From Bacteroidetes bacterium GWB2_32_14 (lineage in GTDB: Bacteria > Bacteroidota > Bacteroidia > Bacteroidales > UBA12077), in contig MENK01000024.1 of the NCBI GenBank assembly GCA_001768235.1, positions 84,468-148,467 of the forward strand: 64,000 nucleotides of DNA. Direction: 5' to 3'. Below the pieces are notes generated by a model, which was given only the letters and a program-made list of their open reading frames with translations, was not told where the DNA came from and searched no databases. A program made the position numbers and the translations under genes. Numbering within the stretch: position 1 is the stretch's first letter; every line of letters starts with the position of its first letter. This document shows positions 12,284 to 53,827 of the stretch, piece by piece.

Positions 12284-12301
12284 AAAGTTAAAAAAAGAAC
12301 T

Positions 12302-12757
12302 ATGAAAAATTTTAATTCGATAAATGAAATACTTGATTTTGCAATAAATGCAGAGCAAGAAGCTGTTGATTTTTACAATCAGCTGGCAGTAAATTCAAAA
12401 ACTTCCGATATGCAACAGGTATTTACACAGTTTGCACAGGAAGAAATAGGCCATAAAGCACGATTGATAAAGATAAAAAATGAAGGCAGCTACCAGTTAA
12501 AACAAGAACAAGTTGCTGATTTAAAAATTGCAGATTACCTGGTAAGTATTATGCCAACACCTGGTATAAGTTACCAGGATGCACTTGTACTCGCGATGAA
12601 AAAAGAAAAAGCAGCTTTTAAATTGTATTTTGAACTTTCGAAACGTGCCCAGGATACTGAAATGAAAAATGTTTTTCTTTCCCTGGCCCAGGAAGAATCA
12701 AAACACAAACTCAGGTTCGAAATCGAATACGACGAGTTTGTTTTACGCGAGAATTAA
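12302..12757 (+). CDS. Ferritin-like di-iron protein (rubrerythrin-family domain without a rubredoxin domain)
   Basis: Two E...ExxH pairs (EQEAVDFY...EEIGH and a second set ...EESKH). Lies 19 nt after the redox operon and is followed by a terminator. Confidence 0.7.
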   Translation: MKNFNSINEILDFAINAEQEAVDFYNQLAVNSKTSDMQQVFTQFAQEEIGHKARLIKIKNEGSYQLKQEQVADLKIADYLVSIMPTPGISYQDALVLAMKKEKAAFKLYFELSKRAQDTEMKNVFLSLAQEESKHKLRFEIEYDEFVLREN

Positions 12758-21801: not shown

Positions 21802-22179
21802 ATGAGTGCGAAAAAGAAAATTATAGTGGTTGATGATTCGGAAACAAACCTTGTTCTTTTAGAAGCTATTTTAGAGGATGAAGGATTTATTGTTAAAACA
21901 GCTTTTAGCGTTAAAGAAGCAACTGAATTGTTAAAAGATTATAAGCCAAACTTAATTTTACTGGATTTATTAATGCCAAACGAAAATGGTTTCGATTTAC
22001 TTAAAAAACTAAAGTTAAATTCGAGTTATAAAGATATTCCGGTAATTATTGTTACTGCTTTTGCAAACAGAGAAAACTCCGCTATTGCTTTCGATTTGGG
22101 AGCATTTGATATTATTGAGAAACCAATTGATATACCCTTTTTTCTGGAAAAGGTAAACAAGGCCCTTGCAATTTTTTAA
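21802..22179 (+). CDS. Single-domain response regulator (CheY-like receiver), first gene of the chemosensory cluster
   Basis: IVVDDSE, ILLDLLMP, IVTAF and EKP. Confidence 0.85.
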   Translation: MSAKKKIIVVDDSETNLVLLEAILEDEGFIVKTAFSVKEATELLKDYKPNLILLDLLMPNENGFDLLKKLKLNSSYKDIPVIIVTAFANRENSAIAFDLGAFDIIEKPIDIPFFLEKVNKALAIF

Positions 22180-22195
22180 TCATAATATTTTTAAA

Positions 22196-23992
22196 ATGAC
22201 TGAAAAGGAATTGGAAAATAAAATAAAGGTTAAGGCATTACTTGAAACATATTCTACAAAAGATATATGTAAAATATTTACAACTATCGATAGTAAAATA
22301 TACTCATTGCACGAATGCTCATCCGATGATTTTCTTCGGTTAAATAACGATTTTAAACAATTATATAACCAGTCAAAATTAATTTCGGAAAATGTTGCTG
22401 AAATATTTAATATCCTGAATACAAATAAAAACAAGCTTTTATATAACGAGATTTACACCTATTGTGAGAAAATAATTGAAAACACAAAAACTTTTGATCA
22501 TAACCTGATCGTGATAATCGATTTTTTAAAGGATTTGTCGAATCAATTAAGGTTTGTTTTTTTCCCGGTTAAGAATTATGGCCAAAATTTAATGAGCCTT
22601 AAATACTTAATAGCGAATTTAAATCTTACTGTATCTTATTCAAAAGAAAATAGTGACGCATTAAAAAGCTTTAAAAGAATCGAGGAAAATATAAACGGGT
22701 TGAAATCATTGCTGGAAAAAATACCAAAAATCGTTAATGCTTCCAGGAAAATATCGAGAATAATTACTTCAAATTTCGCACTGGGTAAAGAAACACCAGA
22801 TACGAATATTGAATCCATATTAAATGCAGTAAAGTCAAGTATAGGATTAATTGAAAGGAAATACAAAGCGAATGAAAATAATATCCCGGATATTCGAAAG
22901 AAAACGGATAAATCGGCTGAGAATATTAGTGATATAATTAAAAAATTACAGTATCAGGATATTATTAAGCAAAAAATGGAGCATATTCAGCATACACATA
23001 AAGACCTTATTAATGAACTTTATGAGTTTGAAAATACTTCTGACGAAGAAAAATATATTAACGAAAAAGCAAAGTTTTTCTTGCGCATAAGAGATATTGC
23101 AGGATTACAGGCAGCTCAGCTTATCCATGCAAATAAGGAGTACCAGTCTGCCCTGGAAATAATTATTAATAATTTTATACAAATAGGAGATAATATGAAA
23201 ATTATCTCTCAATTGTGTAATGATATTGTTACGGATAATGAAAATGATGAAGAAAGATTATTTGATGAGATAGTGCAAAATATCAAGCGTTCGGAAGAAT
23301 GCTACCTTAATAAAAACAACCAGAATAAAAAGCTATACAAAGAGCTAAATTCAATAGAATATCAATTAACCCAGTCAGAGAAAAGTTTCGCACTGCTGAA
23401 TGAACTAAATAATGATTTAAACATAAATATTAATCAATATTTTAAGGAAATAGAAAAACTGTCGGAACATGATGAGAATATTAAACAATCTTTAATACAA
23501 TTAAAAAGCCTTTATAAAGATATTCAGCAAAATGGTTTAAAACTGATTGGTTTTAATGGCCTGCTAGCTCCTTTAAAAAAACATGTTCAGAGCCTGATTA
23601 ACGACAAAACCGATACATCATTAAATAAAAATTTTGAAAGAATTGAAAAAGCCGTGAGCCATTTACATTCATTACGCTTTAGCCTTGATAGCAAATTAAA
23701 GGAAAATCAGGATATAAGTAATGGTGTATTAAATGGAATTAAAAAATCAATTTCCGAAATAAAGTATTATGATTTTTTCGAAAAAATAATTGATGAGATA
23801 ATAACAGAATTAAATACAATAAACTATAACCTGAAGATTGATGATGAAGAAATAAGCAGTAAAGAAGAAAATTTAAAGAAACTTAAAAGTTATTATACTA
23901 TGCAAACCGAGCATTTAATTCATGAGCAGGTCGAAAAAGGAGAAAAAGCGGATATAGAAAGCGATGATAATGGCGAAATAGAATTCTTTTAA
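22196..23992 (+). CDS. Large coiled-coil protein of unknown family with a CheZ-like DxxxQ motif and an acidic aromatic C-terminal tail
   Basis: The track ORF starts at a TTG at 22166. The ATG at 22196 (MTEKELENK) is more likely, 16 nt after the receiver stop. The protein is helical and low-complexity throughout. It carries KLQYQDIIKQKMEHI at 22943-22987 and ends ...ADIESDDNGEIEFF. Confidence 0.6.
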   Translation: MTEKELENKIKVKALLETYSTKDICKIFTTIDSKIYSLHECSSDDFLRLNNDFKQLYNQSKLISENVAEIFNILNTNKNKLLYNEIYTYCEKIIENTKTFDHNLIVIIDFLKDLSNQLRFVFFPVKNYGQNLMSLKYLIANLNLTVSYSKENSDALKSFKRIEENINGLKSLLEKIPKIVNASRKISRIITSNFALGKETPDTNIESILNAVKSSIGLIERKYKANENNIPDIRKKTDKSAENISDIIKKLQYQDIIKQKMEHIQHTHKDLINELYEFENTSDEEKYINEKAKFFLRIRDIAGLQAAQLIHANKEYQSALEIIINNFIQIGDNMKIISQLCNDIVTDNENDEERLFDEIVQNIKRSEECYLNKNNQNKKLYKELNSIEYQLTQSEKSFALLNELNNDLNININQYFKEIEKLSEHDENIKQSLIQLKSLYKDIQQNGLKLIGFNGLLAPLKKHVQSLINDKTDTSLNKNFERIEKAVSHLHSLRFSLDSKLKENQDISNGVLNGIKKSISEIKYYDFFEKIIDEIITELNTINYNLKIDDEEISSKEENLKKLKSYYTMQTEHLIHEQVEKGEKADIESDDNGEIEFF

Positions 23993-24344: not shown

Positions 24345-24710
24345 ATGAGCAAAGTTATTTTAATTGTTGATGATTCTGAGAGTATCCGGGAAGTGGTAAA
24401 TTTCACATTAGAAAACGAAGGCTATAAAGTACTTATTGGTATTGATGGCAAGGATGCTTTAAAATTCCTTGATGGCAGGCCTATCGATTTAATTATTACC
24501 GATTTACATATGCCGGAAATGGATGGTATCGAATTAATAAAACATATTCGTACCGTTGATGCATATAAGCATATTCCTATCTTATTTCTAACTACAGAAT
24601 CTCAGGTTTCAAAAAAAATGGAAGCCAAAGATGCCGGAGCAACCGGATGGATAATTAAGCCATTTGTCCCCGCGAAATTAATTGAAGCACTTAAAAAAGT
24701 AATACGATGA
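24345..24710 (+). CDS. cheY: Chemotaxis response regulator CheY
   Basis: 121 aa with LIVDDSES, IITDLHMPEMDG, LTTE and IIKPF. Overlaps cheA by 4 nt (ATGA). Confidence 0.9.
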   Translation: MSKVILIVDDSESIREVVNFTLENEGYKVLIGIDGKDALKFLDGRPIDLIITDLHMPEMDGIELIKHIRTVDAYKHIPILFLTTESQVSKKMEAKDAGATGWIIKPFVPAKLIEALKKVIR

Positions 24711-26755
24711 TAGATAAATTCAAAAATAAATTTATCGAAGAAGCAACAGATAATATTAATGATCTGGAAGATGCTTTATTGCTTATTGAGAATGATACCC
24801 AAAACAAAGAACTTGTCGAAAGAATATTCAGGGCTATGCATTCCCTGAAAGGCGGCGGAGCCATGTTTGGGTTCAACCAATTAAGTGAGTTTACTCATAA
24901 CCTCGAGAATTTGTACGACATTGTCAGAGAAGGGAAACAACAGATTACAAGGAACCTTTTAGATGTTACATTAGCATCTGTTGACCACATGAAAGTGTTA
25001 ATAACAAATGAAAACCTTGATACTCCTGAAATCAAAGCAAGGCAAGAAGAATTAACCCTTCAAATAAAAAAGGTAATGGCCAACGATATTAGCAAAGAAA
25101 AAACTGTTGCCTCTGATACAATCCGGAAAAACAAAAACATTAAAACCTACTACATTTATTTTGAACCTGATATCAATGTGTTTAACGATGGTACAAACCC
25201 CTTGTTTTTAATCGACGAGTTATATACACTCGGGAATTGTAAAACATATGCTCATTTTAATAAAGTTCCCGATCTTAACAAAATTGATGTTACCAAATGT
25301 TATACATACTGGGAGATTCTGTTAGCTACCAACGAAGATATTAATGTAATTACTGATGTTTTTATTTTTATAGAAGATCAGTGTAAACTGGAGATAAATG
25401 AAATTGCTGATTATGATATTACATCAACTCCGGAGATAATTGAAAAGATATCGGTATTAGCGGCAGAAAGAAAAGATGTTGGAATTGCTGAGATTCAAAA
25501 TATTATAAAGGCAACAGCAAAAGCCAGGTTCGATTCAATAAATGCCGATGAGGTAATCTCTAAAGCAGGAAATCTTCCATCTGTAAAAGAAAATGTTATT
25601 TCCAGTATCAGGGTTTCATCTAACAAGTTGGATCAATTAATGAACCTTGTTAGTGAACTTGTTACAACCCAGGCAAGATTAAGTTTGTTTGCTGAAAAGT
25701 TAGGCGATCCTGAAGTGTTTGCTATTGCTGAAAATGTTCAGAAATTATCACGGCAACTTCGTGACAATGCGTTTGATATTGTGTTGGTTCCTATTGAAAC
25801 GATGATTACCCGCTTCCAGCGATTAGTCAGGGACCTGTCAAAAGAACTGAACAAAAATGTTGTATTTATTGCCGAAGGTACCGATACAGAATTAGATAAA
25901 ACAATTATTGAATCTTTAACAGATCCTTTATTGCATATAATCCGAAATTGTATCGATCATGGAATTGAAACAGCCGATACCAGAAAAAGGCTGAATAAGC
26001 CGGAACAAGGTAAAATCCTTTTAAAAGCATTTTATTCGGGAGCCAATGTCCATATTAAAATACATGATGATGGCGCGGGAATTGATCTGGAAAGAATCAG
26101 GGATAAAGCAATCCAGAAGGGGATAATCGGAAAAGATAGCGTACTGAATAAAAAAGAAACACTAGACCTCGTTTTCTTGCCGGGATTTTCAACAGTTCAA
26201 AATGTTACGGATGTCTCAGGCAGGGGCGTTGGAATGGACGTGGTTAAACGTAAGCTTGCTGAAATCCGTGGTGAAGTGGAACTTGATTCCGAAGTTGGTG
26301 TGGGTACAACCTTAACATTAAAATTGCCTCTTACTTTATCAATAATTGATGGATTACTTGTGAAAATTGATCAGATTCATTATGTAATTCCATTGTCAGT
26401 TGTAAAAAAAATATATGCTACTGAACATAACCAGGTTATTAATAAATACAATAACCTGATAGTTCTGGATAATGAACGAATTCCTTTTTATTATTTAAGA
26501 GAAGAGTTTAGTTTACCTGAATCGAATCAGAAGATAGAACAGGTAATAGTTGTTTCTTTCGAAGATAAACAAATTGGTTTGGTTGTAGATGAAGTGGTTG
26601 GCGAATACCAGGCCGTACTAAAATCTTTGGGGAGAATGTATAAAAAACAGGAAATAATATCAGGAGCAACCATCCTGGGTGATGGAACAGTTGCCCTTGT
26701 TATGGATACAAACAAAATTATCAATAAGTTTTCGCAGGGAAAACTAAATATTTAA
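24707..26755 (+). CDS. cheA: Chemotaxis histidine kinase CheA
   Basis: Hpt P1 motif FRAMHSLKGGGAMFG, a dimerisation region, HATPase boxes (HIIRNCIDHGIE, DDGAGID, GRGVGMDVV) and a C-terminal CheW-like P5 domain. Confidence 0.95.
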   Translation: MIDKFKNKFIEEATDNINDLEDALLLIENDTQNKELVERIFRAMHSLKGGGAMFGFNQLSEFTHNLENLYDIVREGKQQITRNLLDVTLASVDHMKVLITNENLDTPEIKARQEELTLQIKKVMANDISKEKTVASDTIRKNKNIKTYYIYFEPDINVFNDGTNPLFLIDELYTLGNCKTYAHFNKVPDLNKIDVTKCYTYWEILLATNEDINVITDVFIFIEDQCKLEINEIADYDITSTPEIIEKISVLAAERKDVGIAEIQNIIKATAKARFDSINADEVISKAGNLPSVKENVISSIRVSSNKLDQLMNLVSELVTTQARLSLFAEKLGDPEVFAIAENVQKLSRQLRDNAFDIVLVPIETMITRFQRLVRDLSKELNKNVVFIAEGTDTELDKTIIESLTDPLLHIIRNCIDHGIETADTRKRLNKPEQGKILLKAFYSGANVHIKIHDDGAGIDLERIRDKAIQKGIIGKDSVLNKKETLDLVFLPGFSTVQNVTDVSGRGVGMDVVKRKLAEIRGEVELDSEVGVGTTLTLKLPLTLSIIDGLLVKIDQIHYVIPLSVVKKIYATEHNQVINKYNNLIVLDNERIPFYYLREEFSLPESNQKIEQVIVVSFEDKQIGLVVDEVVGEYQAVLKSLGRMYKKQEIISGATILGDGTVALVMDTNKIINKFSQGKLNI

Positions 26756-27303: not shown

Positions 27304-29385
27304 ATGAAATCAATTAACGATTTAAAAATTGGATTAAGGCTTAATTTAATATTAAGTATCCTGATTGTTGTAATTATTACAGCTTTAGGTGTTTATAATT
27401 ATTACACCAATAAGCAAAGAATTATTAACGATGCTGATATAAGGATGAACGAACAATTGGATGATATGGTAAGCATTCTGGATGTTCAGATATCTGAAAA
27501 TCAGAAAAAAGTCAATACTGCACTTCAGGTAGCTTCGCATGTATTTAATACAAGCGGAGATTTAATTTTAGATAGCAGGGAATATATAAACATGGCTGCT
27601 TCAGGACAGGGTTTCCAGATGCAGGATATGAATGTACAACTTTGGAAATTGGGGAATGTTCCTATTCAATTAAACAATGACTTTGTTGATAAAATAGGAG
27701 AATTAACAGGAGCAAATACTTCGGTATTTCAGAAAGTGCAGGGAGGATACGTGCGAATCGCGACAAATGTACTAAACGAATCAGGAAAAAGATCGTTCGG
27801 AACTTTTATGGCAAATAACTCAGATATTGTTCAGAAAATTGAATCTGGCCAAAAATATGAAGGACGTGCCCTGGTATTGAATGTTTGGATGTTAACTGCA
27901 TATGAACCGATAAAGCTAAATGGACAAATAATTGGGATGATTGGTGTTGGAGTTCCCGAAAAAGATCTTGGTAGTTTAAAAAAGATTTTTGACAGTAAAA
28001 TCTACTTTGAGTCGGGATATCCTTTTCTTGTAGCAAAAGATGGTACATTTATTATTCACCCTACATCGGAAGGTCAAAATGCAAGCCAGTTTACATTTTT
28101 TAAACAAATGACAGGAAGTAATCAAAACAGTGGAAAATCAAGGTATCAATGGCCTGAAACAGCAAGTGGACAATGGAAATATCAATATTTTAAATACGTT
28201 CCTAAAATTGATTCTTATGTTGCCGTATCATTTTATGAAAATATTTTATTTAAATATTTAAAAGAAATACGTACATCAATAATTGTAGGGTTAATACTAG
28301 CAATTGTAATTTTTATTATTATTGTTTCGTTAATTTCCACGAATATAGCCAAGGCATTAAATAAGGGAGTTAATTTTGCACAGAAAGTTGCCGATGGGGA
28401 TCTTACAGCAACAGTTGAAATAAAACAACAAGATGAAATAGGGTTGTTGGCTAATGCGCTCAATCGTATGGTTTTACAACTACGTGGTATTGTAGAAAAT
28501 GTCGATTTAAGTGCAGACAACATTGTTTCTGCAAGCCAGCAGATAAGTTCTGGTTCGCAACAATTATCACAAGGAGCTAATGAACAGGCTTCATCAACGG
28601 AAGAAGTATCTTCATCTATGGAAGAAATGGTTTCTAACATTCAGCAAAATACAGATAATTCGCAGCAAACAGAAAAAATATCAATAGAAGCAGCTAATGG
28701 TATAGAAAAAGTTGCTCATGCTTCTCAGGAAAGCCTAAGCTCTATAAGGCAAATTGCGGGCAAAATCAATGTTGTTAACGATATTGCTTTTCAAACGAAT
28801 ATACTGGCTTTAAATGCGGCAGTAGAAGCTGCACGTGCCGGTGAACATGGCAGGGGGTTTGCCGTTGTTGCCGCAGAGGTTAGAAAGCTGGCCGAAAGAA
28901 GTAAAATTGCTGCCGACGAAATAGTTGGTTTATCAGCGCATAGTTTAAAAGTTACCGAAGAAGCCGGAGAACTAATGGCCAAGATAATTCCTGAAATAGG
29001 TAAAACAGCCAAACTGGTACAGGAAATTTCTGCTGCAAGCCTTGAACAAAATTCAGGCGCCGACCAGATAAATAATGCTATTCAGCAATTAAATCAGGTT
29101 ACACAGCAAAATGCTGCTGCATCGGAAGAATTGGCTACCAGTGCCGAAGAACTCGCCAGCCAGGCCGAACAATTGAGAGAGAATATTTCATTCTTTACTA
29201 TTGGCGATAATAAAAAATTAATGAAAAGTAAAAAAGATCATGGGAAATATGATTCCCAAAAGAAAGAAAATAAGGCAGCAAATAGTGTTCATGAACAAAA
29301 ACATGCAAGTTTAAATCGTAATACCGGGTATGACTTTAAGATGCACGATGATAAAACTACTGACGATGATTATGAAAAATTTTAA
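27304..29385 (+). CDS. Methyl-accepting chemotaxis protein with a periplasmic Cache-type (double-Cache-like) sensor, HAMP and signalling domain
   Basis: TM1, a roughly 280-aa periplasmic region ([10 protein letters not shown]...GKRSFGT Cache-like motif), TM2 and HAMP ([13 protein letters not shown]). The conserved hairpin tip is [42 protein letters not shown]. Confidence 0.95.
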
Positions 29386-30071: not shown

Positions 30072-32009
30072 ATGAAAATAAACGATATAAAAATCAGTAA
30101 CAAGTTAAGAATTTCAATATTTTCTCAAGTGGTTTTTATTGCTTTAATCGTCTTCTTCTTTTTTAATATCAATAATAAGTTTAATGAAATTAAAAAGAAT
30201 AAGATTTATGTTTCGGAGAAGATAAATGAAATTCGATCGTTTTCTCTAAACGTAAAAGATTTTATTAATAATGACATGGATTACAATCAGTTGCGTTCGG
30301 TTTACGAATCCATGAGAGCCGGCCTTTCACAGGATGTTTCAATGAATGTTTTTGATGAGATTTGGTCGGACATTGATAAAATTAATGACTTACGTAACCA
30401 AAATCTGGCGATTGAAAACAAAGTTATGGATTTGTGTTCGCAATCAATAAATGCTTCGTCAACTTTTATTATGAGCGTTAGTGCGAAACTTGCCGATGCA
30501 AGGTTAAGCAATTCTGTTTCAAAATTAGAACGAATAGTTATTGGTGGTGCGAATAATAATAATTTGTTTTATGCTGAAATAAAAGTGCTTTTTTATAAAT
30601 TAAAAAATGATATTTCTTTAAAAGAACAATTGCTGACAACACTTAATAGTGGAATTGAGAACGCAACCCAGGACAGGGGGCGTTTAAAAGGAACTCCCTA
30701 TGAATCGCTTGCGGTTACAGCCATTGATGCAAATGTTCAGATAAGAAGCCTTGTTGTTGAGTATGTTTCAAAAGTAGAAACTGAGAATAATCTTAAAAAT
30801 AATATTTTTCAGATTATTGATAAAATGGATAAAGAACTAAACAGCAATGAAACAAAATCAACTTTCGATGGATTTGCCGTGATTAAGAGCCAGATAATTA
30901 CAATTTTTACTCTGATTTTTATTATATCATTCATTCTTATACTGATTTACTATGATTTGGTAAAAGTAGTTGGAAGGTTGATTAATGTAGCTGTCACAAA
31001 CCTCACCAAGATGTCAGAAGGTGAACTCGATCTTAATATTTCAGAAACATTAACAGATAGAAACGATGAATTGGGGTTGTTCTCAAAAAGTTTGAATAAC
31101 CTGATTGTAAAGCTAAAGGATATTATTGATTCCATTTCAACTGCTGCAGAGAGTATTAATTCGGCAAGTCTGCAAATAAGTTCAGGTTCTCAGCAATTAT
31201 CGCAGGGAGCTAATGAACAGGCATCTTCAACCGAAGAAGTATCTTCATCAATGGAAGAGATGGTGTCGAATATTCAACAAAATGCAGATAATGCACAGCA
31301 AACAGAGAAAATTTCTGTTGAAGCTTCAAATGGTATCGGGAATGTTGCAAAAGCAGCTCAGGAAAGCTTGAAATCGATCCGCCAGATAGCTGATAAAATT
31401 TCAGTTGTAAACGATATTGCTTTCCAAACAAATATTTTAGCGCTTAATGCAGCAGTCGAAGCTGCCCGTGCAGGGGAACATGGTAAAGGATTTGCAGTAG
31501 TAGCTGCTGAAGTTAGAAAACTTGCTGAAAGGAGTAAAGTTGCTGCCGACGAGATTGTTGGTTTATCAGCACATACTTTAAAAGTTACCGAAGAAGCAGG
31601 GGAACTAATGGCCAAAATAATCCCTGAAATAGGTAAAACAGCCAAACTGGTACAGGAAATTTCTGCCGCAAGCCTTGAGCAAAATTCAGGCGCCGATCAG
31701 GTTAATAATGCGATACAGCAATTGAATCAAATTACTCAGCAAAACGCTGCAGCTTCTGAAGAATTGGCAACCAGCGCCGAAGAACTTGCCAGCCAGGCAG
31801 AACAATTAAAGGAGAATATATCTTATTTTTCTACCGGGAGCATAAAAAATTATAAAAGTATAAAGAGTAATGCAGCCAAATTGCATGAACAGAAAAAATC
31901 ATTTTCTCTTACTCCTAAGGCAAGTCCCAAAATGAAAATGAATAAACATTCTGGTATTGATATTCATTTGAACGACAGGAATATTGATGATGAATATGTA
32001 AAGTATTAA
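30072..32009 (+). CDS. Methyl-accepting chemotaxis protein with an all-helical periplasmic sensor (4HB/HBM-like), HAMP and signalling domain
   Basis: Two TM segments flank a roughly 240-aa helical region, followed by HAMP ([14 protein letters not shown]). The signalling domain is 203/222 identical to that of the first MCP (by-eye count). Confidence 0.95.
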
Positions 32010-32129: not shown

Positions 32130-32987
32130 ATGGATCCAACATTATTACAACAAATTTTTAATGCAAAAATGACTGACGATGATTTTAATCGCCTGAGCGA
32201 TTTTATATATAAGCAGTCAGGAATAAAAATGCCGTATGTAAAATTAATTATGCTGCAAAGTCGGTTGCAAAAGCGACTGAAGGAATTAAAAATTAGCACG
32301 TATAAAGATTATGTTGATTATGTTTTTAGTGAAGAGGGACAAAAAAACGAAATTATCCACATGCTCGATGTGGTGAGCACGAATAAAACAGATTTTTTCA
32401 GGGAACCTGTACATTTCGATTTTTTAAATACAGATGTTTTACCCAAATTCATGAATAATATTCATTTAAATTATAACTTTAAAGTATGGAGTGCAGGATG
32501 TTCAAGCGGAGAAGAACCATATACCATTGCAATTACCTTACAGGAGTTTAAAAACAGAAATCCAAGATTCGATTATTTTATAACAGCAACAGATATTTCT
32601 TTGCAGATTTTACAACATGCTTCCCTGGCTGTTTACAAGGAAGAAAGAATATCAAATATACCCCTGGAGATTAAAAGAAAATATTTTCTGAGAAGCAAGG
32701 ATCATGAAAAAAAAACGGTAAGGGTTGTTAAAGAATTGAGAAACAAAGTAGCCTATTACAGGCTTAACTTTATGAACGATACCTACAATTTGCCCGACGT
32801 CTTCGATGTTATATTTTGCAGGAATGTCCTTATTTATTTTAATCGTGAAACCCAGGAACAGGTAATTAATAAATTGTGTTTAAAACTAAAAAGCGGGGGA
32901 TATTTATTTATTGGGCATTCCGAATCAATATTGGGCATGAAAGTTCCTTTAGAACAAATAAAACCAACAATTTTCAAACGTATTTAA
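32130..32987 (+). CDS. cheR: Chemotaxis protein methyltransferase CheR
   Basis: TDFFRE, VWSAGCSSGEEPYTIA (SAM motif), IFCRNVLIYF and GGYLFIGHSE. Confidence 0.9.
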   Translation: MDPTLLQQIFNAKMTDDDFNRLSDFIYKQSGIKMPYVKLIMLQSRLQKRLKELKISTYKDYVDYVFSEEGQKNEIIHMLDVVSTNKTDFFREPVHFDFLNTDVLPKFMNNIHLNYNFKVWSAGCSSGEEPYTIAITLQEFKNRNPRFDYFITATDISLQILQHASLAVYKEERISNIPLEIKRKYFLRSKDHEKKTVRVVKELRNKVAYYRLNFMNDTYNLPDVFDVIFCRNVLIYFNRETQEQVINKLCLKLKSGGYLFIGHSESILGMKVPLEQIKPTIFKRI

Positions 32988-32998: not shown

Positions 32999-33916
32999 AT
33001 GACAGATTTAACCGACAAAGAATTAATCGACGAGCTTAAAAAACGTTTTGAACAAAATAAACGGGCACTTGAAGAAGTACATGAACTTAATAATGAGCTT
33101 AAAAACGCTAATTTGAAACTCGAAGAATCAGAAGCCCTGAAAAGCCACTTTATTTCGAATATTACAAACGAAATTATTAATCCTTTTGCATCAATTCTGG
33201 CTTTATCAAAAAATATATTATCTGTAGATAAAGAAAATTGGAAAAAAGTAATTTCAATGATTTCCTTAATATATTCCGAAGCTTTTAACCTCGATTTTCA
33301 GTTGCGGAATATATTTGTTGCAGCAAAACTTGAAGCCGGCGAAATTTATCCCGAAATTTTAAATGTGGATATAAAATACTTAATTGATAGTGTTATTGAA
33401 TCATTTAAGTACGTATCTAAGAAAAAGAAATTAAGCATCAGTTTTAATTTTAACATTCCAACAGAACATAATAAACCGGTTTTCTTTAAATCCGATCCCG
33501 AAAAGCTAAGATTAATATTATCAAATCTTTTAAGCAATGCTGTAAAATTTAGCGCTGATGATAAAAGTATTGAAATTACAGCATCTATGGAAAAGAAAAA
33601 TTTAATAATATCTGTTAAAGATAATGGAACAGGAATATCATTAAAAAACCAGAAAATAATTTTTGACAGGTTTAAAAGGCTCGATTCAGGAATTAACTCA
33701 ATTAACCGTGGACATGGATTAGGCCTTTCAATAAACAAAGCATTACTCGATTTGTTAAACGGAACTATTAAAGTTGAGAGTAGTATTGGCAAAGGAGCTA
33801 ATTTCATAATCTCAATACCCGAAAACGATTCACAAGCCAGTGGGTTTTCATTCGATGGAAACGAGTTGTTTTTTGATGACGAATCCATTTTGAATACTGA
33901 TTCTGAAACATTCTAA
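32999..33916 (+). CDS. Soluble histidine-kinase-fold protein with a degenerate H-box (phospho-acceptor His replaced by Asn) and an intact HATPase domain
   Basis: The ATG at 32999 (MTDLTDKEL) is preferred over the track TTG at 32876, which overlaps cheR by 112 nt. It has a coiled coil, a DHp-like segment ESEALKSHFISNITNEIINPFASI, and N/G1/F/G2 boxes LSNLLSNAVKF, DNGTGI, FDRF, GHGLGLSI. No TM segment or sensor domain. Confidence 0.8.
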   Translation: MTDLTDKELIDELKKRFEQNKRALEEVHELNNELKNANLKLEESEALKSHFISNITNEIINPFASILALSKNILSVDKENWKKVISMISLIYSEAFNLDFQLRNIFVAAKLEAGEIYPEILNVDIKYLIDSVIESFKYVSKKKKLSISFNFNIPTEHNKPVFFKSDPEKLRLILSNLLSNAVKFSADDKSIEITASMEKKNLIISVKDNGTGISLKNQKIIFDRFKRLDSGINSINRGHGLGLSINKALLDLLNGTIKVESSIGKGANFIISIPENDSQASGFSFDGNELFFDDESILNTDSETF

Positions 33917-33927: not shown

Positions 33928-34416
33928 ATGGATAACCTTGGGTCACATTTTTTATATCCGGCGGAACTTTATGCAAGTAAAGAGCCATTCCAGATTAATA
34001 CTATTTTAGGTTCATGTGTTGCAGTTTGTTTATGGGACAGAACCTTAAACTATGGAGGAATGTGTCATTACATGTTGCCTTATTGGAATGGAGAAGGTTT
34101 AGCGTCGCCTAAATACGGTAATATTGCAATAGAAAAGCTATTAGAGAAAATGTATTCTTTTGGTTGCAATAAAATGAATATTGTTGCAAAGGTTTTTGGC
34201 GGTGGCGAAGTTATTGAAACAAAATCTCCCCAGTTTCATATTGGTGAAAGAAACATTAAATTAGCACTAGAAGTTTTAGAAGAAAAAAAAATAAGTATTA
34301 TTAGTTCAAGCCTGGGTGGCAAGCAGGGACGAAAAATCATATTTTATACCCATACAGGAGAAGTTAAACAAAGATATGTGCAACGTCAAACAGTAAATCC
34401 TGATAATAAAAACTGA
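33928..34416 (+). CDS. cheD: Chemoreceptor glutamine deamidase CheD
   Basis: ILGSCVAVCLWD (catalytic Cys), GGMCHYMLP (His) and AKVFGGG. Confidence 0.85.
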   Translation: MDNLGSHFLYPAELYASKEPFQINTILGSCVAVCLWDRTLNYGGMCHYMLPYWNGEGLASPKYGNIAIEKLLEKMYSFGCNKMNIVAKVFGGGEVIETKSPQFHIGERNIKLALEVLEEKKISIISSSLGGKQGRKIIFYTHTGEVKQRYVQRQTVNPDNKN

Positions 34417-34476: not shown

Positions 34477-35571
<1,095 letters not shown>

Positions 35572-35793: not shown

Positions 35794-38070
35794 ATGGGTG
35801 AACGTAATTCTCAAGGCATTGTATTTAAATATACTGTTAGTGGTTTTATTGTTGGATTAGTTACAGTTTTATTTGTAATTATTGTTGATTTTTTAATTAA
35901 AAAAATCAGTTTCTCCGAATTAATCGAGATACATAAGTCAAACCCGGTTTATATAATTATTGATTTGTCTCCGCTTGTTCTTGCCTTTTATGCTTATCTG
36001 GTTAGTAAAAAATATGCCGATACTTCATCGGTTCTACATGCATCATTAAAAAATGAATTTGACAAAACCCAAAAAATATTCAGGTTTGTTGAAAAAATCA
36101 GGCTTGGTAATATCGATGCTGATTATAAAGTTCAGGATTCTGACGATGTGCTTGGCCAATCAATACTCGATTTACGGGATAATTTAAAGAAAAACAAAAT
36201 AGAAGAGGATAACAGGCGCAGGGAAGATAAGCAAAGAAACTGGATAGCCGAAGGACTGGCTATGTTCGGAGAAATATTACGTAAAGATACCGATAACATC
36301 CAGGAGCTTTCTTATAACCTGATTAGCGAACTTGTAAAATATATTAAAGTTAACCAGGGAGCATTCTTTATTATTAATGATGAATCTTTATCCGATAAGC
36401 ATCTTGAAATGACTGCCTGCTATGCTTATGAACGCAGAAAATTCGCTGATAAAAGGGTTGAGTGGGGCGAAGGAATTCTTGGAGCATGCATTTTAGAACA
36501 GGAAACAATTTATATGACCGATGTTCCTAAAAACTATGTAAATATTACATCAGGTCTTGGGCAGGCAACTCCGAAATTTTTATTGGTTGTTCCGTTAAAA
36601 ATTAATAACGAGGTTTACGGTGTCCTTGAAATAGGTTCCTTTCAGCAAATTGAAAAATACGTTATTGAATTTATCGAAAAAGTTGCAGAAAGCGTTGCAT
36701 CAACAATTTCAAATGTTAAAATAAATACGCGGACAGCAAAGCTTCTTAAAGAATCTCAATTGCAGGCAGAAACTCTTGCATCTCAGGAAGAACAAATGAG
36801 GCAGAACATGGAAGAACTTCAGGCCACCCAGGAAGAAGCTGCCCGCCAAAGTGAGAAGTTTATTACTTTTACAAATGCCGTGAATCACACTCTTATTCGT
36901 GCCGAATATGATTCCAATGGAACCCTTCTTTATGCAAATACTAGATTCCTTAAAAAATTGGGTTACGAAAGAAACTCTGAGGTTGAAGGTCAGCACATCT
37001 CTTTGTTTATTAATGAAAAAGACAGGGAGTGGTTCGACGAATTATGGGAAGGTTTGGCCAAAGGAGGTAAACATTTCGAAGGCGACATGAAACATGTTAC
37101 AAAACAAGGCCGCGATTTGTGGACTATGTCAACATACACGTGCATGAGAAATGATGATGGAAGTGTAGAAAAAATCCTGTTCCTTGCAATTGATACTACC
37201 GACCAGAAAAAACAAAGCCTCGATTACCAGGGGCAAATTCAGGCTTTGAATAAGTCAACAATTAAAGTAGAGTTTTTACCTACTGGTGATTTACTCGAAT
37301 GCAATCAGAAATTTATTGATTTAATGGAGTTTTCGTTATATGAACTTAAAGAAAAAACAATTTTCGATTTTGTTGATAAATCTGAATTAAACAAATTACG
37401 TGAATTCTGGGATAAAATTATACTGGGTGAAACATGGGAAGGTACGTTACGACAAAGAACAAAAGAAGATAAAGATATATGGGTAAGAGTTTCTCTTTCG
37501 GCTGTTAAAGATATGTACGATGACATTTCAAAAATTGTATATATTGGCAACGATGAAACCAAAGAGAAATTAATGGAAATTGAATCGAGAAAACAGACCG
37601 AACTACTCAAAAAACAAGAAGAAGAGTTGCGTATATCACGATTAGATTTAAGAGCTCAACTTAAACAGGCAAAAGACGAAATACGACAACAATTTAAAGA
37701 AATTGAAAGATCTAAAATACTTCATGAAAGAACATTGGAAGGAGCTCTCGATTCAATTATTACTATAAATCATAATGGAATTATTATATTTTTTAATAAA
37801 GCTGCCGAAGAGCTTTGGAATGTAAAAAAAGACTCCGTATTGGGGCGAAATGTTTCAAAACTTTTCCCTGATTATGATTTTAGCGATGAGTTTATTAATT
37901 CATTTATTGATTTGAACGAAGATAAGGTAATTGGAGAGCGTAAAGAAGTTGTTATTAAAGATGCAAAAGGAAATGAAAAATCTGTACTTTTCCTTATATC
38001 ACAGGCAAAAGTGGATGATGAAACAACATATACAGCATTTATACAGAATATTTCTGTAGATTTATTTTAG
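35794..38070 (+). CDS. Membrane-anchored GAF plus multi-PAS sensor protein with no recognisable output domain
   Basis: Two N-terminal TM helices and a GAF-like region (VNQGAFFIIND...LLVVPLKINNEVYGVLEIGSF). A coiled-coil linker follows (QEEQMRQNMEELQATQEEA). There are then at least three PAS-like repeats, and the ORF ends inside or just after the last PAS. Confidence 0.85.
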   Translation: MGERNSQGIVFKYTVSGFIVGLVTVLFVIIVDFLIKKISFSELIEIHKSNPVYIIIDLSPLVLAFYAYLVSKKYADTSSVLHASLKNEFDKTQKIFRFVEKIRLGNIDADYKVQDSDDVLGQSILDLRDNLKKNKIEEDNRRREDKQRNWIAEGLAMFGEILRKDTDNIQELSYNLISELVKYIKVNQGAFFIINDESLSDKHLEMTACYAYERRKFADKRVEWGEGILGACILEQETIYMTDVPKNYVNITSGLGQATPKFLLVVPLKINNEVYGVLEIGSFQQIEKYVIEFIEKVAESVASTISNVKINTRTAKLLKESQLQAETLASQEEQMRQNMEELQATQEEAARQSEKFITFTNAVNHTLIRAEYDSNGTLLYANTRFLKKLGYERNSEVEGQHISLFINEKDREWFDELWEGLAKGGKHFEGDMKHVTKQGRDLWTMSTYTCMRNDDGSVEKILFLAIDTTDQKKQSLDYQGQIQALNKSTIKVEFLPTGDLLECNQKFIDLMEFSLYELKEKTIFDFVDKSELNKLREFWDKIILGETWEGTLRQRTKEDKDIWVRVSLSAVKDMYDDISKIVYIGNDETKEKLMEIESRKQTELLKKQEEELRISRLDLRAQLKQAKDEIRQQFKEIERSKILHERTLEGALDSIITINHNGIIIFFNKAAEELWNVKKDSVLGRNVSKLFPDYDFSDEFINSFIDLNEDKVIGERKEVVIKDAKGNEKSVLFLISQAKVDDETTYTAFIQNISVDLF

Positions 38071-38152: not shown

Positions 38153-40516
38153 TTGATAACTAATTCAGGAAATAAAAAAGGAAAAACAAAATATAGTTTC
38201 GTTAAGAACTTTTTTGTAACTGTAGTTTTTCTTTTGTTTAGCATGTTCATTTGTGCTCAACAGAATAAAACCGATAGTTTACTTTTGTTATTCCAATCAG
38301 CAAAAGATAATAGAAAGGTTGATCTTTTAAATGAACTATCAATTTCATCCCGTAATATTTCGTTAAATAAATCACTCGATTATGCCAACCAGGCAATTGA
38401 TTTAGCCCTGAAAATGAACTATAAATTTGGCGAAGCCGATGGGTATAAAAATAAAGGAGTAGTTTACTTTATTCAAAATAAAAATACCGAAGCTTTAGCT
38501 GAATATGAAAAATCATTACATCTTTTCAAGCAGGAAAAGAATAGCGCTAAAGTATCTGCCCTTATGAATAACATAGCTAACATATATGTCAGGCAGGGCG
38601 ATTATGAAAAAGCATTAACAAATTATTTAGAAGCAGCAAAAATAAATATCGAAACAAATAAACAGGAAAGTGTCGCGAATATTTATAATAACATTGGCAT
38701 GGTTTATAATAAATGGGGTAAAAACGAGCAGGCTTATGAATATTATAATAAATCGCTTGATATTAATAAAAAACTAAATAATAAATTAGGAATTGCTGCA
38801 GCATTAAATAACATTGCTTTGATTTTAAAGAATTGGGGACAGTTCGAGAAATCACTCGGGTATTTTCAGGAAGCTGTAAAAACCAACGAAGAAATTGGCG
38901 ATAAGATTGGCATTGCAAGATGTTTAAGTAATATGGCCCTTGTATATTTAAGCCTGGGGCAAGACAAAAAAGCTTTGGAACTCAATTTACAATCTCTCGA
39001 GTTAAAAATGGAGCTTGAAGATAATCAGGGAGTTTTATTTTCATATTCTGGTATTGGAGATATTTATTACAATACCGGGGAGTTTGAAAAAGCACTCGAA
39101 TTTTACGAAAAGTCTTTAAATACAGCAATTCAATCGAACAGTAAAGAATATATCATTTTATCAAATACGGATATCGGGGATACTTATTTCATGGTTAAGA
39201 ACTATTTAAAAGCCCTTGAATATTATGGAGATGCAATTCATATAGCCGAAAAAATTAAAAGCAACCAGAACATAAGTGTTATACGGAATAAAATAGGTAA
39301 CTGTCAATTCGCGATTAATCAATATAATAGTGCCGGGCAAAATTATTTATACAGTTTGAACCTGGCAAGAGAACTTAACCTGGTAAGTTTAATTGAACAA
39401 AACGCTTACGATTTATCTGTTCTGTATGCCAAAACAAAAAATTTTGAAAAAGCATATCAATATCAGACAGAATATATCGAAATTCATACAAAACTTTTTA
39501 ATGAAAATACACAAACCAAGATATCTGAGATACAAACAAAATACGAAACCGAAAAAAAAGAGAAAGAAATTATTGAGTTAAAATCGAAGCAGGTTAAAGT
39601 GAAACAGCAAAATCTTTATTATTATACAGGATCAATACTTGTTATTTTTATCATCATCATTATATTTCTGCAAAACAGGTACCTGATAAAGAAAAAATCG
39701 TTAAATATGCTCGATCAAAAAAATATCTTGCTCGAAAAAGCAAACCAGGACTTAATTCTTGCTAAAGAAAAGGCACAAGAATCGGATCGTTTAAAAACAG
39801 CATTTTTAACGAATATTTCTCACGAGATTCGAACTCCCATGAATGCAATTATTGGTTTTTCCGAATATATAACCGATAATGATATAGCCGAAGATGAGAA
39901 GAAAGAACTGTTTAATTTAATTCGTATAAACAGCAATGTTTTGTTAAGTTTAATTGATGATATTCTTGATGTTTCCCTTATTGAAACAGGCCAATTAAAA
40001 ATTAAAAATGAAAAAGTATCATTGGAGAAATTAATGGAAGAATCTTACCTCCTGGTTAAAGAAAACAAAAAGCTTAAACAATCGCGTATTGATTTTACAT
40101 ATTATATTGACAATCAATTAAAAGGAGCCTGTGTTATTTCAGATCCATTCAGGTTAAAGCAAATATTGGTTAATTTACTCGATAATTCAATAAAATTCAC
40201 CGATTCCGGACAAATATCCTTTAGTTGTAAGCTTATTGATAATGAGTCAGGTAAAATTATCCAGTTTAGCATTGATGATACAGGAATAGGCATTGATAAA
40301 AAATATCACGAAATGATTTTTGAACGTTTTTTTAAAGTTCCTTCAAACAATACAGTTATTTATCGCGGTTCAGGAATCGGGTTATCAATTGCTAAAAGCC
40401 TTATAAACCAGATGAAAGGGCAGGTATGGCTTCGTTCTGAACCCAATGTTGGTACATCATTTATTTTTACAATTCCTTATATTGAAAGTTCGCAAGCGAA
40501 TGAAGTATTGAATTAA
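38153..40516 (+). CDS. TPR-repeat sensor histidine kinase (extracytoplasmic TPR array, one TM, HisKA, HATPase)
   Basis: TTG start and signal-like N-terminus. About 9 TPR-like repeats (A..Y...L.I....G) precede a TM segment (ILVIFIIIIIFL). The H-box TAFLTNISHEIRTPMNAI is canonical, with NLLDNSIKF, DTGIGI and GSGIGLSI boxes. Confidence 0.85.
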   Translation: MITNSGNKKGKTKYSFVKNFFVTVVFLLFSMFICAQQNKTDSLLLLFQSAKDNRKVDLLNELSISSRNISLNKSLDYANQAIDLALKMNYKFGEADGYKNKGVVYFIQNKNTEALAEYEKSLHLFKQEKNSAKVSALMNNIANIYVRQGDYEKALTNYLEAAKINIETNKQESVANIYNNIGMVYNKWGKNEQAYEYYNKSLDINKKLNNKLGIAAALNNIALILKNWGQFEKSLGYFQEAVKTNEEIGDKIGIARCLSNMALVYLSLGQDKKALELNLQSLELKMELEDNQGVLFSYSGIGDIYYNTGEFEKALEFYEKSLNTAIQSNSKEYIILSNTDIGDTYFMVKNYLKALEYYGDAIHIAEKIKSNQNISVIRNKIGNCQFAINQYNSAGQNYLYSLNLARELNLVSLIEQNAYDLSVLYAKTKNFEKAYQYQTEYIEIHTKLFNENTQTKISEIQTKYETEKKEKEIIELKSKQVKVKQQNLYYYTGSILVIFIIIIIFLQNRYLIKKKSLNMLDQKNILLEKANQDLILAKEKAQESDRLKTAFLTNISHEIRTPMNAIIGFSEYITDNDIAEDEKKELFNLIRINSNVLLSLIDDILDVSLIETGQLKIKNEKVSLEKLMEESYLLVKENKKLKQSRIDFTYYIDNQLKGACVISDPFRLKQILVNLLDNSIKFTDSGQISFSCKLIDNESGKIIQFSIDDTGIGIDKKYHEMIFERFFKVPSNNTVIYRGSGIGLSIAKSLINQMKGQVWLRSEPNVGTSFIFTIPYIESSQANEVLN

Positions 40517-46892: not shown

Positions 46893-48029
46893 CTATTCTC
46901 TCCAAACAGTTTTTTTTACATAATCTATATAAGAAATAATTATCCGAACAACTTTATCCGAGACATTCGGCATAGAATAATCTGATACTGGAAGAAAATT
47001 TCTATTTTCCCTGGTATCTTGATACTTTAATTGTTCCAATCCCTGAAGAATACGTTCCGGGTTTAAACCAACCATCATAACTGAAGCCTGCTCCATGGCT
47101 TCAGGCCTCTCGTGGGCTTCGCGAATATTTAGAGCTCTAAAATTTAATATTGATGATTCTTCTGAAATAGTTCCACTATCTGAAAGGACTGCAAATGAGT
47201 TTATTTGAAGTGCATTGTAATCATTAAAACCAAGTGGTTTTAAGAACTGGATTTCACTGTTTACTTTTATATTTTTTAACTCAATCATTTTTCGTGTTCG
47301 GGGATGAGTGCTAACAATTATTGGAAGTCTGTACTTTTCAGCAATTGTATTAAGAGAGTTTATTAAGCCATTAAAGTTCTTGTCGCTATTAATATTTTCT
47401 TCACGATGGGCAGAAACAACAAAGTATTTTTCTTTTTTTAAACCTAACCGGGATAACACATCCGATTTTTTAATATCCGGGAGATAATGATTCAGGACTT
47501 CAAACATGGGTGACCCTGTTTTAATTATTCTGTCAGCAGGAAGGCCTTCTCTTAATAAGTATTCACGAGCGATATCACTATAAGTTAAATTAATATCAGA
47601 TATATGATCTACGATTTTTCTGTTTGTTTCTTCAGGAACTCTTTGGTCAAAACAACGATTTCCGGCTTCCATGTGAAAAATTGGAATATGGCGTTTCTTT
47701 GCAGGAATTGCACAAAGACAACTATTTGTATCACCTAAAACTAAAAAGGCATCAGGATTTAATTTGTCTAAAATGGAGTCTGTCTTGATAAGAATCTGTC
47801 CAATAGTTTCAATAGCAGTAGAACCTGCTGCATCTAAAAAATAATCTGGTTTACGTATTTTTAAATCGTCGTAGAATATCTGGTTCAATTCATAATCGTA
47901 ATTCTGGCCTGTATGAATAGTTATATGCTCAATAGCATCTGACTGGTCTAACTTGGCCATTACACGAGAAAGCCTGATTATTTCAGGCCTGGTGCCAACA
48001 ACTGTAACTACTCTTAACTTTTGTTTCAT
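46893..48029 (-). CDS. fnlC: Non-hydrolysing UDP-sugar 2-epimerase (FnlC/CapG type; WecB family)
   Basis: VVTVVGTRPEIIRL, LVLGDTNS and HMEAGNR are WecB-family motifs. It is the last of a CapE/CapF/CapG-like trio. Confidence 0.8.
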   Translation of the reverse strand: MKQKLRVVTVVGTRPEIIRLSRVMAKLDQSDAIEHITIHTGQNYDYELNQIFYDDLKIRKPDYFLDAAGSTAIETIGQILIKTDSILDKLNPDAFLVLGDTNSCLCAIPAKKRHIPIFHMEAGNRCFDQRVPEETNRKIVDHISDINLTYSDIAREYLLREGLPADRIIKTGSPMFEVLNHYLPDIKKSDVLSRLGLKKEKYFVVSAHREENINSDKNFNGLINSLNTIAEKYRLPIIVSTHPRTRKMIELKNIKVNSEIQFLKPLGFNDYNALQINSFAVLSDSGTISEESSILNFRALNIREAHERPEAMEQASVMMVGLNPERILQGLEQLKYQDTRENRNFLPVSDYSMPNVSDKVVRIIISYIDYVKKTVWRE

Positions 48030-48056
48030 GATTGATTCTATTAATTCGGAAAAAGA

Positions 48057-49193: not shown

Positions 49194-49206
49194 ACTATTT
49201 TTATAA

Positions 49207-50244: not shown

Positions 50245-50427
50245 AATTCATGTTAAATATTATTTCTGCTTTTCTGGTTTTATGAATATTGTTTGAAATT
50301 TCTATAAAAATATTATAATATCATCAATAATTATAATATTTAAAAATGAGTTTTAAGAATGATAAAATTAAGTCAAAATTTAAATTTTACCAATATTTAT
50401 CAAAAAGCGAGAGTATTTAAAAAATCT

Positions 50428-51720: not shown

Positions 51721-51725
51721 AAACT

Positions 51726-53824: not shown

Positions 53825-53827
53825 TAA

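Follow-up and report, generated by a model that had tools for sequence, protein, structure and literature searches.

A kinase-like protein without its acceptor His, encoded beside cheD in chemosensory operons: a candidate receiver phosphatase or sensor

Introduction

Chemosensory (Che) pathways need CheY dephosphorylation, and many of the clusters that carry CheD are without CheC, CheX or CheZ. The active sites of CheC and CheX contain an E-x-x-N pair; CheC is bound by CheD, which stimulates CheX as well as CheC. CheZ forms a dimeric helical-hairpin bundle that bears an acid/amide catalytic pair; a flexible linker then leads to a conserved peptide at the C-terminus. Here, we analyse a 64,000 nt stretch of the Bacteroidetes bacterium GWB2_32_14 genome (contig MENK01000024.1, positions 84,468 to 148,467 of the forward strand; hereafter the window), in which a Che operon encodes a kinase-fold protein with Asn at the position of the phospho-acceptor His. 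We refer to this protein as the His-less kinase-like protein (HKL); its gene, at positions 32999-33916, had been singled out in an earlier note made from the DNA sequence.

The homologous systems are HisKA-type histidine kinases in their phosphatase state. HK853 (T. maritima), EnvZ (E. coli) and CrdS (M. xanthus) have, as HKL does, a core made of a dimerization and histidine phosphotransfer (DHp) domain and a catalytic and ATP-binding (CA) domain, together with a nucleotide pocket and an E/D-x-x-T/N motif (as defined in PMC3510030 and PMC7005713). In CrdS, the Asn four residues after the His (H+4) is essential for phosphatase activity and the His only enhances it; in particular, the half-life of the phosphorylated receiver is 53.5 min with no enzyme, 0.7 min with the wild type and 2.6 min with the H371A mutant (PMC3510030). 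An acidic residue after the His is needed for HisKA autophosphorylation, and the acid at H+1 in CrdS is required for kinase activity, not for phosphatase activity (PMC3510030). Further, the phosphatase activity of HK853 and of EnvZ is strongly increased by ADP bound to the CA domain, acting via this domain and its ATP lid (PMC7005713). Unlike these three enzymes, HKL has Asn in place of the acceptor His, appears to have lost the kinase and phosphotransfer half of their activity, has no sensor domain, carries an extra conserved C-terminal tail, and is encoded beside cheD rather than beside a cognate DNA-binding regulator.

DivL (Caulobacter) and RetS (Pseudomonas) have HisKA-type cores that work without an acceptor His, and at the acceptor position HKL, too, has a residue other than His. 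DivL differs in having Tyr there along with large PAS sensor regions, and RetS in being a membrane hybrid kinase acting on GacS; neither is found in Che clusters or paired with CheD. Unlike in DivL and RetS, the ATP boxes and E-x-x-N motif of HKL are strongly constrained, and the boxes are not degenerate.

HKL resembles CheC, CheX and FliY in that its gene adjoins cheD in Che clusters and in that it has an acid-x-x-Asn pair on a helix (E58-x-x-N61), with the same spacing as the CheC/CheX catalytic pair. The likeness is by convergence: the HKL fold is unrelated (DHp-CA, with no CheC or CheX Pfam match) and, unlike theirs, includes a nucleotide-binding domain. The predicted HKL dimer is also similar to CheZ in its layout, with a helical-hairpin bundle that bears an acid/amide pair, then a flexible linker, and lastly a conserved peptide at the C-terminus, whereas CheZ is without sequence or fold homology to HKL, without an ATP-binding domain and without a link to CheD.

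An interaction between CheD and CheC is described in PMC3513319. In PMC9239204, a histidine kinase-like gene in Che clusters with cheD, and sometimes STAS, appears as the letter 'K' in diagrams only. The F8 class of Che systems, which contains CheD, has been called experimentally unexplored (bioRxiv 10.64898/2026.05.11.724241); Wuichet and Zhulin define the class by CheA phylogeny, gene order and receptor heptad class, and the window operon has CheD and a kinase-like gene in common with it. No mention of the missing His, the cheD pairing or the function proposed below was found in PMC9239204 or in the F8 preprint. HisKA-less kinases are the subject of a 2026 preprint whose selection criteria include a conserved His and an additional domain; it does not cover HKL and says nothing of chemotaxis. 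A full-text literature search, with the founding classification paper outside its scope, found no published description of a His-less kinase paired with CheD. HKL is a large and apparently undescribed family; the strongest clues to its function, which the earlier note did not have, are its near-obligate pairing with cheD (newly found here), its size and phyletic breadth, and its conserved C-terminal tail motif.

Results

Asn replaces the acceptor His throughout the family

The HKL gene and the elements surrounding its acceptor position are:

32999..33916, + strand: HKL gene (open reading frame and sequence; same Met start in 120 orthologues)
33140..33187, + strand: degenerate H-box, K48-F63 (KSHFISNITNEIINPF), in DHp helix 1 (gapless against the HK853 H-box; invariant in 120 orthologues)
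33146..33148, + strand: His50 codon CAC, 7 residues before Asn57 (kept in the Bacteroidales branch only)
33167..33169, + strand: Asn57 codon AAC, at the phospho-acceptor His position (N57 = HK853 H260; homologue counts)
33170..33184, + strand: E58-I-I-N61-P62, the E-x-x-N(-P) HisKA phosphatase motif (conservation; PMC3510030 for the role of Asn or Thr at H+4)

The open reading frame begins with an ATG at 32999, ends with a TAA at 33914-33916, and encodes 305 amino acids. Using a profile built from 35 HKL orthologues, HKL (ALKSHFISNITNEIINPFASI) aligns without gaps to T. maritima HK853 (RMKTEFIANISHELRTPLTAI), with Asn57 at the acceptor H260, His50 at E253 and Asn61 at T264. HKL does not have the acceptor His of class I kinases, its residue being Asn57. 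The earlier note had identified this Asn codon and the His codon seven residues upstream, and both are as it described; the canonical H-boxes it quoted from two other window genes, at 18058-20298 (minus strand) and 38153-40516, are also present.

The replacement is conserved at every depth of comparison. The close set consists of the best 120 homologues, which are 65-100% identical, come from Bacteroidales metagenome-assembled genomes (MAGs) and are 298-310 amino acids long except for one entry of 278; Asn57 is found in 120 of 120, and all of them read K-x-H-F-[IV]-S-N-I-T-N-E-I-[IV]-N-P-F. The broad set was obtained by exhaustively searching 1.8 billion representatives of 50% identity clusters with a profile, from which the best 150 matches were taken. 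Among these, 149 are proteins of mostly ~260-320 amino acids (E < 1e-69), the 150th being P0213, and position 57 is Asn in 145 of 147 representatives, with a Ser (locus L091) and a Cys (P0264) as the two departures. Moreover, a second profile search, seeded with divergent members, led to a Magnetococcales/Nitrospirota branch that includes Ca. Magnetominusculus, where N57, E58 and N61 are all present in 113 of 113 sequences. When one genome per species was scanned, HKL relatives were found in 333 species; the best 80 of the 333 are almost all labelled Bacteroidales or Bacteroidota, with one MAG labelled Thiohalospira, and the cultured Perlabentimonas gracilis is among the species with a relative. 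On plasmids, a tblastn search of PLSDB returned only ordinary kinases at ~30% identity, the best full-length match being an 872 amino acid hybrid protein.

Another explanation for the Asn, raised in the earlier note, was a strain-specific lesion or a sequencing error in an ordinary kinase gene, in which case orthologues would carry a normal His. Chance and error are excluded because Asn57 is kept in several hundred homologues across phyla and because the identical DNA is present in five independent groundwater metagenome runs; the full-length open reading frame is conserved as well. The change from His to Asn at the acceptor position is permanent and family-wide, and HKL is very probably not an autokinase. 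Several family members (P0024, P0029, P0096, P0144 and others) bear the misleading database name 'HAMP domain-containing (sensor) histidine kinase'.

HKL has a class I kinase fold without a sensor

HKL is a soluble protein composed of a coiled coil, a DHp hairpin, a CA (ATP-binding) domain and an acidic tail. Its parts are:

33014..33133, + strand: N-terminal coiled-coil stalk, residues 6-45, running into DHp helix 1 (AlphaFold2 helix 6-75; conservation)
33239..33337, + strand: DHp helix 2, residues 81-113 (AlphaFold2 model)
33359..33820, + strand: CA (HATPase_c) domain, residues 121-274 (Pfam, conserved boxes, Foldseek)
33512-33553, + strand: N box, LSNLLSNAVKF (sequence)
33620-33634, + strand: G1 box, DNGTG (sequence)
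33662-33673, + strand: F box, FDRF (sequence)
33710-33730, + strand: G2 box, GHGLGLS (sequence)
33842..33913, + strand: disordered acidic C-terminal tail, residues 282-305 (AlphaFold2 confidence; conserved motif)

The AlphaFold2 model has a mean predicted local distance difference test (pLDDT) score of 74 and contains a long helix (residues 6-75), a second helix (81-113) and the CA domain (121-274), with residues 285-305 disordered (pLDDT < 50). The stalk has heptad-like conserved positions (L9, L13, L30, L34 and L41), and E94, Q101, N104, E112 and G114 are family-conserved residues in or near DHp helix 2. In a Foldseek comparison, the top matches to the model are HK853 structures (E 2e-20), including HK853 in complex with RR468, followed by DivL, GacS, WalK and RetS; the DivL structure (4q20) and the RetS structures (6dk7/6dk8) are among these, and both proteins are also sequence-profile matches. 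The HKL profile matches HK853 across residues 40-277 (E 3.6e-31), and full-length NCBIfam kinase models (PnpS, PhoR, WalK and others) align from about residue 41 to residue 274. The model, Foldseek, profile and NCBIfam results all place a DHp hairpin before a CA domain, which is the class I (HisKA-type) kinase fold.

The Pfam matches reported were solely of HATPase_c-type families (HATPase_c 1.6e-25, residues 166-275), and Pfam HisKA did not match even at E <= 1. No sensor, transmembrane or HAMP domain was found in HKL (Pfam scan for HAMP and sensor domains), which bears out the earlier view that the protein has a coiled coil and nothing else ahead of its core.

The phosphatase motif and the nucleotide boxes are constrained

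An acidic residue at H+1, a Thr or Asn at H+4 and then a Pro make up the HisKA phosphatase motif, and in HKL these are E58, N61 and P62. The reading of E-I-I-N as an ExxN phosphatase motif, with the H+4 role given in PMC3510030, is upheld by its near invariance: across the representatives, E58 is kept in 138/147, N61 in 143/147 and P62 in 147/147, and all three are kept in 113/113 sequences of the Magnetococcales/Nitrospirota branch. Further, DHp positions 64, 65, 68 and 69, which correspond to the kinase-regulator specificity residues, vary little across phyla, and this fits one conserved type of receiver partner.

The nucleotide-binding residues are retained to a similar extent. N176 and N180 of the N box, G210 of G1, and G238, G240 and G242 of G2 are each kept in at least 146 of 149 representatives. 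All four boxes (N, G1, F and G2), reported by the earlier note, are present in the window protein and invariant in 35 Bacteroidales orthologues. Two positions are relaxed family-wide: Lys183 of the N box is Glu in about one third of the representatives, and Asp208 of G1 is Asn in 18/149. The intact boxes are explained because CA-bound nucleotide stimulates HisKA phosphatase activity (PMC7005713). With the His lost, and with the E-x-x-N-P motif, the receiver-binding helices and the nucleotide pocket all constrained, HKL would most simply be a dedicated, nucleotide-cofactored phosphatase of phosphorylated receivers, or at least a binder of them.

Invariant boxes in the Bacteroidales branch are also what would be seen in a kinase that consumes ATP and uses a non-His acceptor, either by direct transfer from ATP to a receiver Asp or as a Ser/Thr kinase acting on a STAS protein, CheD or a receptor. 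HKL has weak Pfam matches to HATPase_c_2, the anti-sigma Ser-kinase type, some of the distant clusters contain STAS or partner-switching genes (L085 and L090), and the gene-order legend in PMC9239204 places 'K' (histidine kinase) with 'S' (STAS) in some chemosensory classes. However, STAS genes are found neither in the window operon nor at most loci, where cheD almost always is, and the Glu and Asn substitutions at positions 183 and 208 fit poorly with universal ATP phosphotransfer. We know of no precedent for direct transfer from ATP to Asp by a DHp-CA protein. Overall, a non-His kinase is improbable.

The upstream His50 is not a family-wide acceptor

The earlier note had proposed, as a second option, a kinase that uses the His located seven residues upstream. 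All of the 120 closest orthologues have His50, and helical periodicity puts this residue on the face of the helix that also bears position 57. Outside Bacteroidales, however, position 50 is mostly N, D or Q. The 149 representatives include 71 with H, 35 with N and 17 with Q, and the 113 Magnetococcales/Nitrospirota sequences include 68 with N, 37 with D and only 3 with H. There is no conserved His column in the family, as no column besides position 50 has His in more than 102/149. Moreover, the residue after His50 is Phe instead of the acidic residue that autophosphorylation requires (PMC3510030). A shifted-His kinase is rejected as the family mechanism because His50 is fixed only in Bacteroidales while N57, E58 and N61 stay fixed, and because Phe follows it; a conventional autokinase using His50 has hardly any likelihood. 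The orthologue alignment that the earlier note had suggested therefore divided its two residues, the Asn being conserved (120/120, 145/147 and 113/113) and the upstream His being conserved in Bacteroidales only.

HKL is paired with cheD across phyla

The relevant neighbours in the window operon are:

24345..24710, + strand: cheY, candidate receiver substrate (Pfam Response_reg)
24707..26755, + strand: cheA, with Hpt, dimerisation, HATPase_c and CheW domains; the genuine pathway kinase (Pfam)
32130..32987, + strand: cheR, upstream neighbour (Pfam CheR and CheR_N)
33928..34416, + strand: cheD, receptor glutamine deamidase and downstream partner (Pfam CheD 2.6e-27; NCBIfam CheD models)
34483..35571, + strand: cheB, receiver plus methylesterase, candidate receiver substrate (Pfam; operon conservation)

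As had been noticed before, HKL is wedged between cheR and cheD, and the spacing is 11 nt on each side, both from the cheR stop to the HKL start and from the HKL end to the cheD start. The full operon order is a receiver (21802), a 608 amino acid coiled-coil protein (22166), CheY, CheA, CheW, a methyl-accepting chemotaxis protein (MCP), CheW, a second MCP, CheR, HKL, CheD, CheB and a GAF-PAS protein, and this order is preserved in essentially all of 80 Bacteroidales loci. CheY is the most conserved operon protein (75-88% identity across loci). The cheR gene lies directly 5′ of HKL in 76/80 loci, and cheD lies immediately 3′ of HKL in 77 of 77 loci with downstream sequence, the contigs of the other three ending there. 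The distance from the HKL stop to the cheD start is ~7-32 nt across the 77 loci, as estimated from alignment starts. At three loci (L029, L033 and L065), an extra gene of ~1.5 kb between cheR and HKL encodes a receiver together with a kinase-like region sharing 27-29% identity with HKL.

The pairing extends beyond Bacteroidales. In particular, cheD adjoins HKL in 8 of 9 distant loci (Magnetococcales, Nitrospirota, Cytophagales and unassigned metagenomes), with gene orders of HKL-CheD (Magnetococcales), CheR-CheB-HKL-CheD (Nitrospirota), MCP-CheR-HKL-CheD (Cytophagales), CheR-HKL-CheD-CheB and CheR-CheB-HKL-CheD (two unassigned metagenome loci), and STAS-CheY-CheA-MCP-CheW-CheR-CheB-HKL-CheD (another distant cluster). 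At L092 (4387-5912), dnaN and gyrB flank an isolated HKL-cheD pair, and the 10 kb metagenome contig has no further che gene. The single distant exception without cheD, L091 (8001-10330), is the locus whose position 57 is Ser; the gene that follows its HKL member encodes instead a membrane PAS kinase of canonical type, whose H-box (SHEIRTP) is normal. The CheD partners retain their catalytic Cys and His motifs (LGSC and GGxxH). The invariant association of HKL is with cheD, not with cheA or cheY, and HKL is probably functionally linked to CheD.

Two of the distant HKL-CheD clusters have further neighbours. L085 (10910-14764) is flanked by a receiver-SpoIIE phosphatase, two DUF6272 genes and a SiaC/STAS-like gene, and L090 has a STAS gene (438-782) beside its cluster; these partner-switching genes hint at a non-motility output.

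The same loci bear on whether HKL is a RetS-like pseudokinase, inhibiting a canonical kinase by forming a DHp heterodimer with it, for example with the TPR kinase (38153-40516) or the PAS hybrid kinase (18058-20298). The three similar H-boxes in the window and the presence of RetS among the structural matches are consistent with such a role. Against it, the TPR kinase accompanies HKL in 2 of 80 loci, the hybrid kinase lies outside the conserved block, distant HKL members are without a conserved kinase neighbour, and the ATP boxes are not degenerate. A heterodimerising pseudokinase, which was the third option of the earlier note, finds no support in these data and is very unlikely.

Two other possible connections to CheD found no support. 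HKL was inspected by eye as a receptor mimic carrying the MCP-like motif [ASTG]-x-x-[EQ]-[EQ]-x-x-[ASTG] for CheD, and its E42-E43 and N57-E58 are without the flanking small residues. P0213, a 2017 amino acid match taken up as evidence of a fusion, turned out to be canonical kinases joined in series, with normal His residues.

A conserved motif in the disordered tail

The HKL tail contains the motif G287-N-E-L-F-F-D293 (33857-33877), whose family-wide form is G-N-x-[FL]-x-F-[DE]. In the 149 representatives, F292 is kept in 131, G287 in 89 and N288 in 90, and the motif also occurs in distant members. The terminus itself reads E-T-F (33905-33913), and endings of the form [ED]-[TIV]-F are seen across the 80 Bacteroidales loci. 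The tail motif probably docks HKL to a component of the pathway.

A canonical NWETF-type pentapeptide was considered for the tail. The pentapeptides that dock CheR or CheB follow the rule x-[WYFH]-x-x-[WYFH]-COOH (PMC7390727), which describes the operon MCPs (DYEKF and EYVKY) and the MCPs beside distant members (DFMQF, EFKKY and DYEQF). HKL ends in D-S-E-T-F, and among the C-termini tallied at the 80 loci position 5 is aromatic and position 2 never is; the candidate was therefore rejected.

A shorter ending, [E/D]-x-F-COOH, is common to four protein families of the operon in nearly all Bacteroidales loci (L001-L080). The MCPs (27304-29385 and 30072-32009) end in (D)EYE(K/N)F, the 608 amino acid protein (22166-23992) in (D/N)-[LIV]-E-[LF]-F, the GAF-PAS protein (35794-38070) in I-S-V-D-L-F, and HKL (32999-33916) in E-[TIV]-F. 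The shared ending suggests a common C-terminal docking site, perhaps on CheR or CheB, that would serve more than receptors.

Discussion

A proposed function for HKL

The near-obligate pairing of HKL with cheD parallels the CheC-CheD and CheX-CheD pairings, which favours a CheC-equivalent. We propose that HKL is a kinase-dead, nucleotide-binding, HisKA-derived phosphatase or sensor of phosphorylated Che receivers that works with CheD, a CheC-equivalent built on a kinase scaffold, and we put the chance of this at about even. HKL would be a soluble dimer on a HisKA-type core, with a coiled-coil stalk, a DHp four-helix bundle and a CA domain. The Asn at the acceptor position would leave it unable to act as an autokinase or phosphodonor, while it would retain the receiver-binding surface, the E-x-x-N pair that places the hydrolytic water, and a complete nucleotide pocket. 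When bound to ADP or ATP, HKL would bind a phosphorylated Che receiver, with CheY as the first candidate and the CheB receiver as the second, and would hydrolyse its acyl-phosphate in a functional partnership with CheD. Beside CheD, it would then fill the role that CheC has in Bacillus and Thermotoga, or CheX in Borrelia. In this proposal, the phosphatase activity, the choice of receiver, a direct contact with CheD and the function of the tail are predictions, whereas the His to Asn replacement and its conservation, the retained motifs and fold, and the gene pairing with cheD are observed. Among the three options of the earlier note, the first, a kinase-dead and phosphatase-competent regulator of a Che receiver, is thus the best supported: the loss of the His and the retention of E-x-x-N-P stand as observations, and the phosphatase activity is a predicted one.

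The main rival is a non-catalytic pseudokinase similar to DivL, whose DHp/CA core would bind phosphorylated CheY or CheB and would capture or release CheD, giving CheC-style receptor feedback without meaningful phosphatase activity. Both the structural (4q20) and the sequence comparisons put DivL, which has Tyr in place of the acceptor His, among the best matches to HKL, and PMC4211667 describes DivL as a repurposed kinase that senses whether a regulator is phosphorylated. Moreover, the B. subtilis CheC-CheD interaction, which CheY~P strengthens, is reported in PMC3513319 as a core function of that pair, and the pairing of the HKL and cheD genes would suit a DivL-like sensor of CheD. In contrast, N61 and E58 are near-invariant at positions that are catalytic rather than structural, which is most simply explained by catalysis. 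A DivL-like sensor, which we consider unlikely although more plausible than any other rival, overlaps with the proposed phosphatase or sensor rather than excluding it.

Several observations weigh against the proposed receiver phosphatase. E58 is conserved, although the H+1 acid in CrdS serves kinase activity alone (PMC3510030). The near-perfect ATP boxes in Bacteroidales exceed what a mere cofactor role demands, and the substitutions at K183 and D208 suggest that nucleotide use may differ within the family. The HKL-cheD pair at L092 has no receiver nearby. The absence of CheC, CheX and CheZ domains from the scanned window genes (the scans leave out genes 55337-63357) and from the annotated distant loci speaks for the proposal, but it was checked in the loci and not in whole genomes. 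No HKL-CheD fusion was seen, the family members being mostly ~260-320 amino acids long, and gene adjacency to cheD is no proof of physical interaction.

In a broader reading, which we hold more tentatively than the proposal itself, HKL-CheD would be a third widespread way to end or adapt chemosensory signals, after CheC-CheD and CheX-CheD. A kinase core would have been made into a nucleotide-gated phosphatase or sensor of phosphorylated receivers by a single His to Asn change, coupling CheY or CheB phosphorylation, and possibly the ATP/ADP state, to the action of CheD on receptors. If so, HKL would fill the phosphatase gap in the systems of groundwater and sediment Bacteroidales, magnetotactic Nitrospirota and Magnetococcales, would be the missing auxiliary component of an experimentally unexplored Che class in Bacteroidota, Nitrospirota and Magnetococcales, and would provide a clean natural case in which a two-component kinase has become an enzyme that only switches 'off'. 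The annotation of HKL genes as histidine kinases inflates the counts of orphan kinases. As a small and soluble protein, HKL is an easy experimental handle.

Other features of the operon and the window

The 608 amino acid protein (22166-23992, + strand) is rich in coiled coils, and its gene overlaps the first receiver gene (21802-22179). It is found at the same position in most loci, with 27-58% identity, and it had no Pfam, NCBIfam or PDB match when considered as an alternative phosphatase; it may be an output or a scaffold of this Che pathway. The GAF-PAS protein (35794-38070, + strand) has 758 amino acids, with an N-terminal hydrophobic segment, a GAF domain, three PAS domains and no output domain. 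Its gene is the last of the Bacteroidales Che block (52-88% identity). Similarity to the heme-PAS sensors DosP and FixL is seen in the last PAS domain, and the protein could provide input to the array or to the sensor-less HKL. The two MCP genes (27304-29385 and 30072-32009) share long identical stretches in their signalling domains and have different N-terminal sensor halves, which looks like a recent duplication with sensor swapping.

Outside the operon, the window contains a redox cluster (6155-12757, + strand) that encodes a NuoE-like 2Fe-2S protein, a NuoF-like FMN/4Fe-4S protein, a rubrerythrin and a 1247 amino acid fusion of a pyridine-nucleotide-disulfide oxidoreductase with a molybdopterin oxidoreductase. 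On the opposite strand, a polysaccharide biosynthesis cluster (46893-55096, - strand) encodes a UDP-GlcNAc 2-epimerase, epimerases/dehydratases, a Wzy-type polymerase, glycosyltransferases and a flippase.

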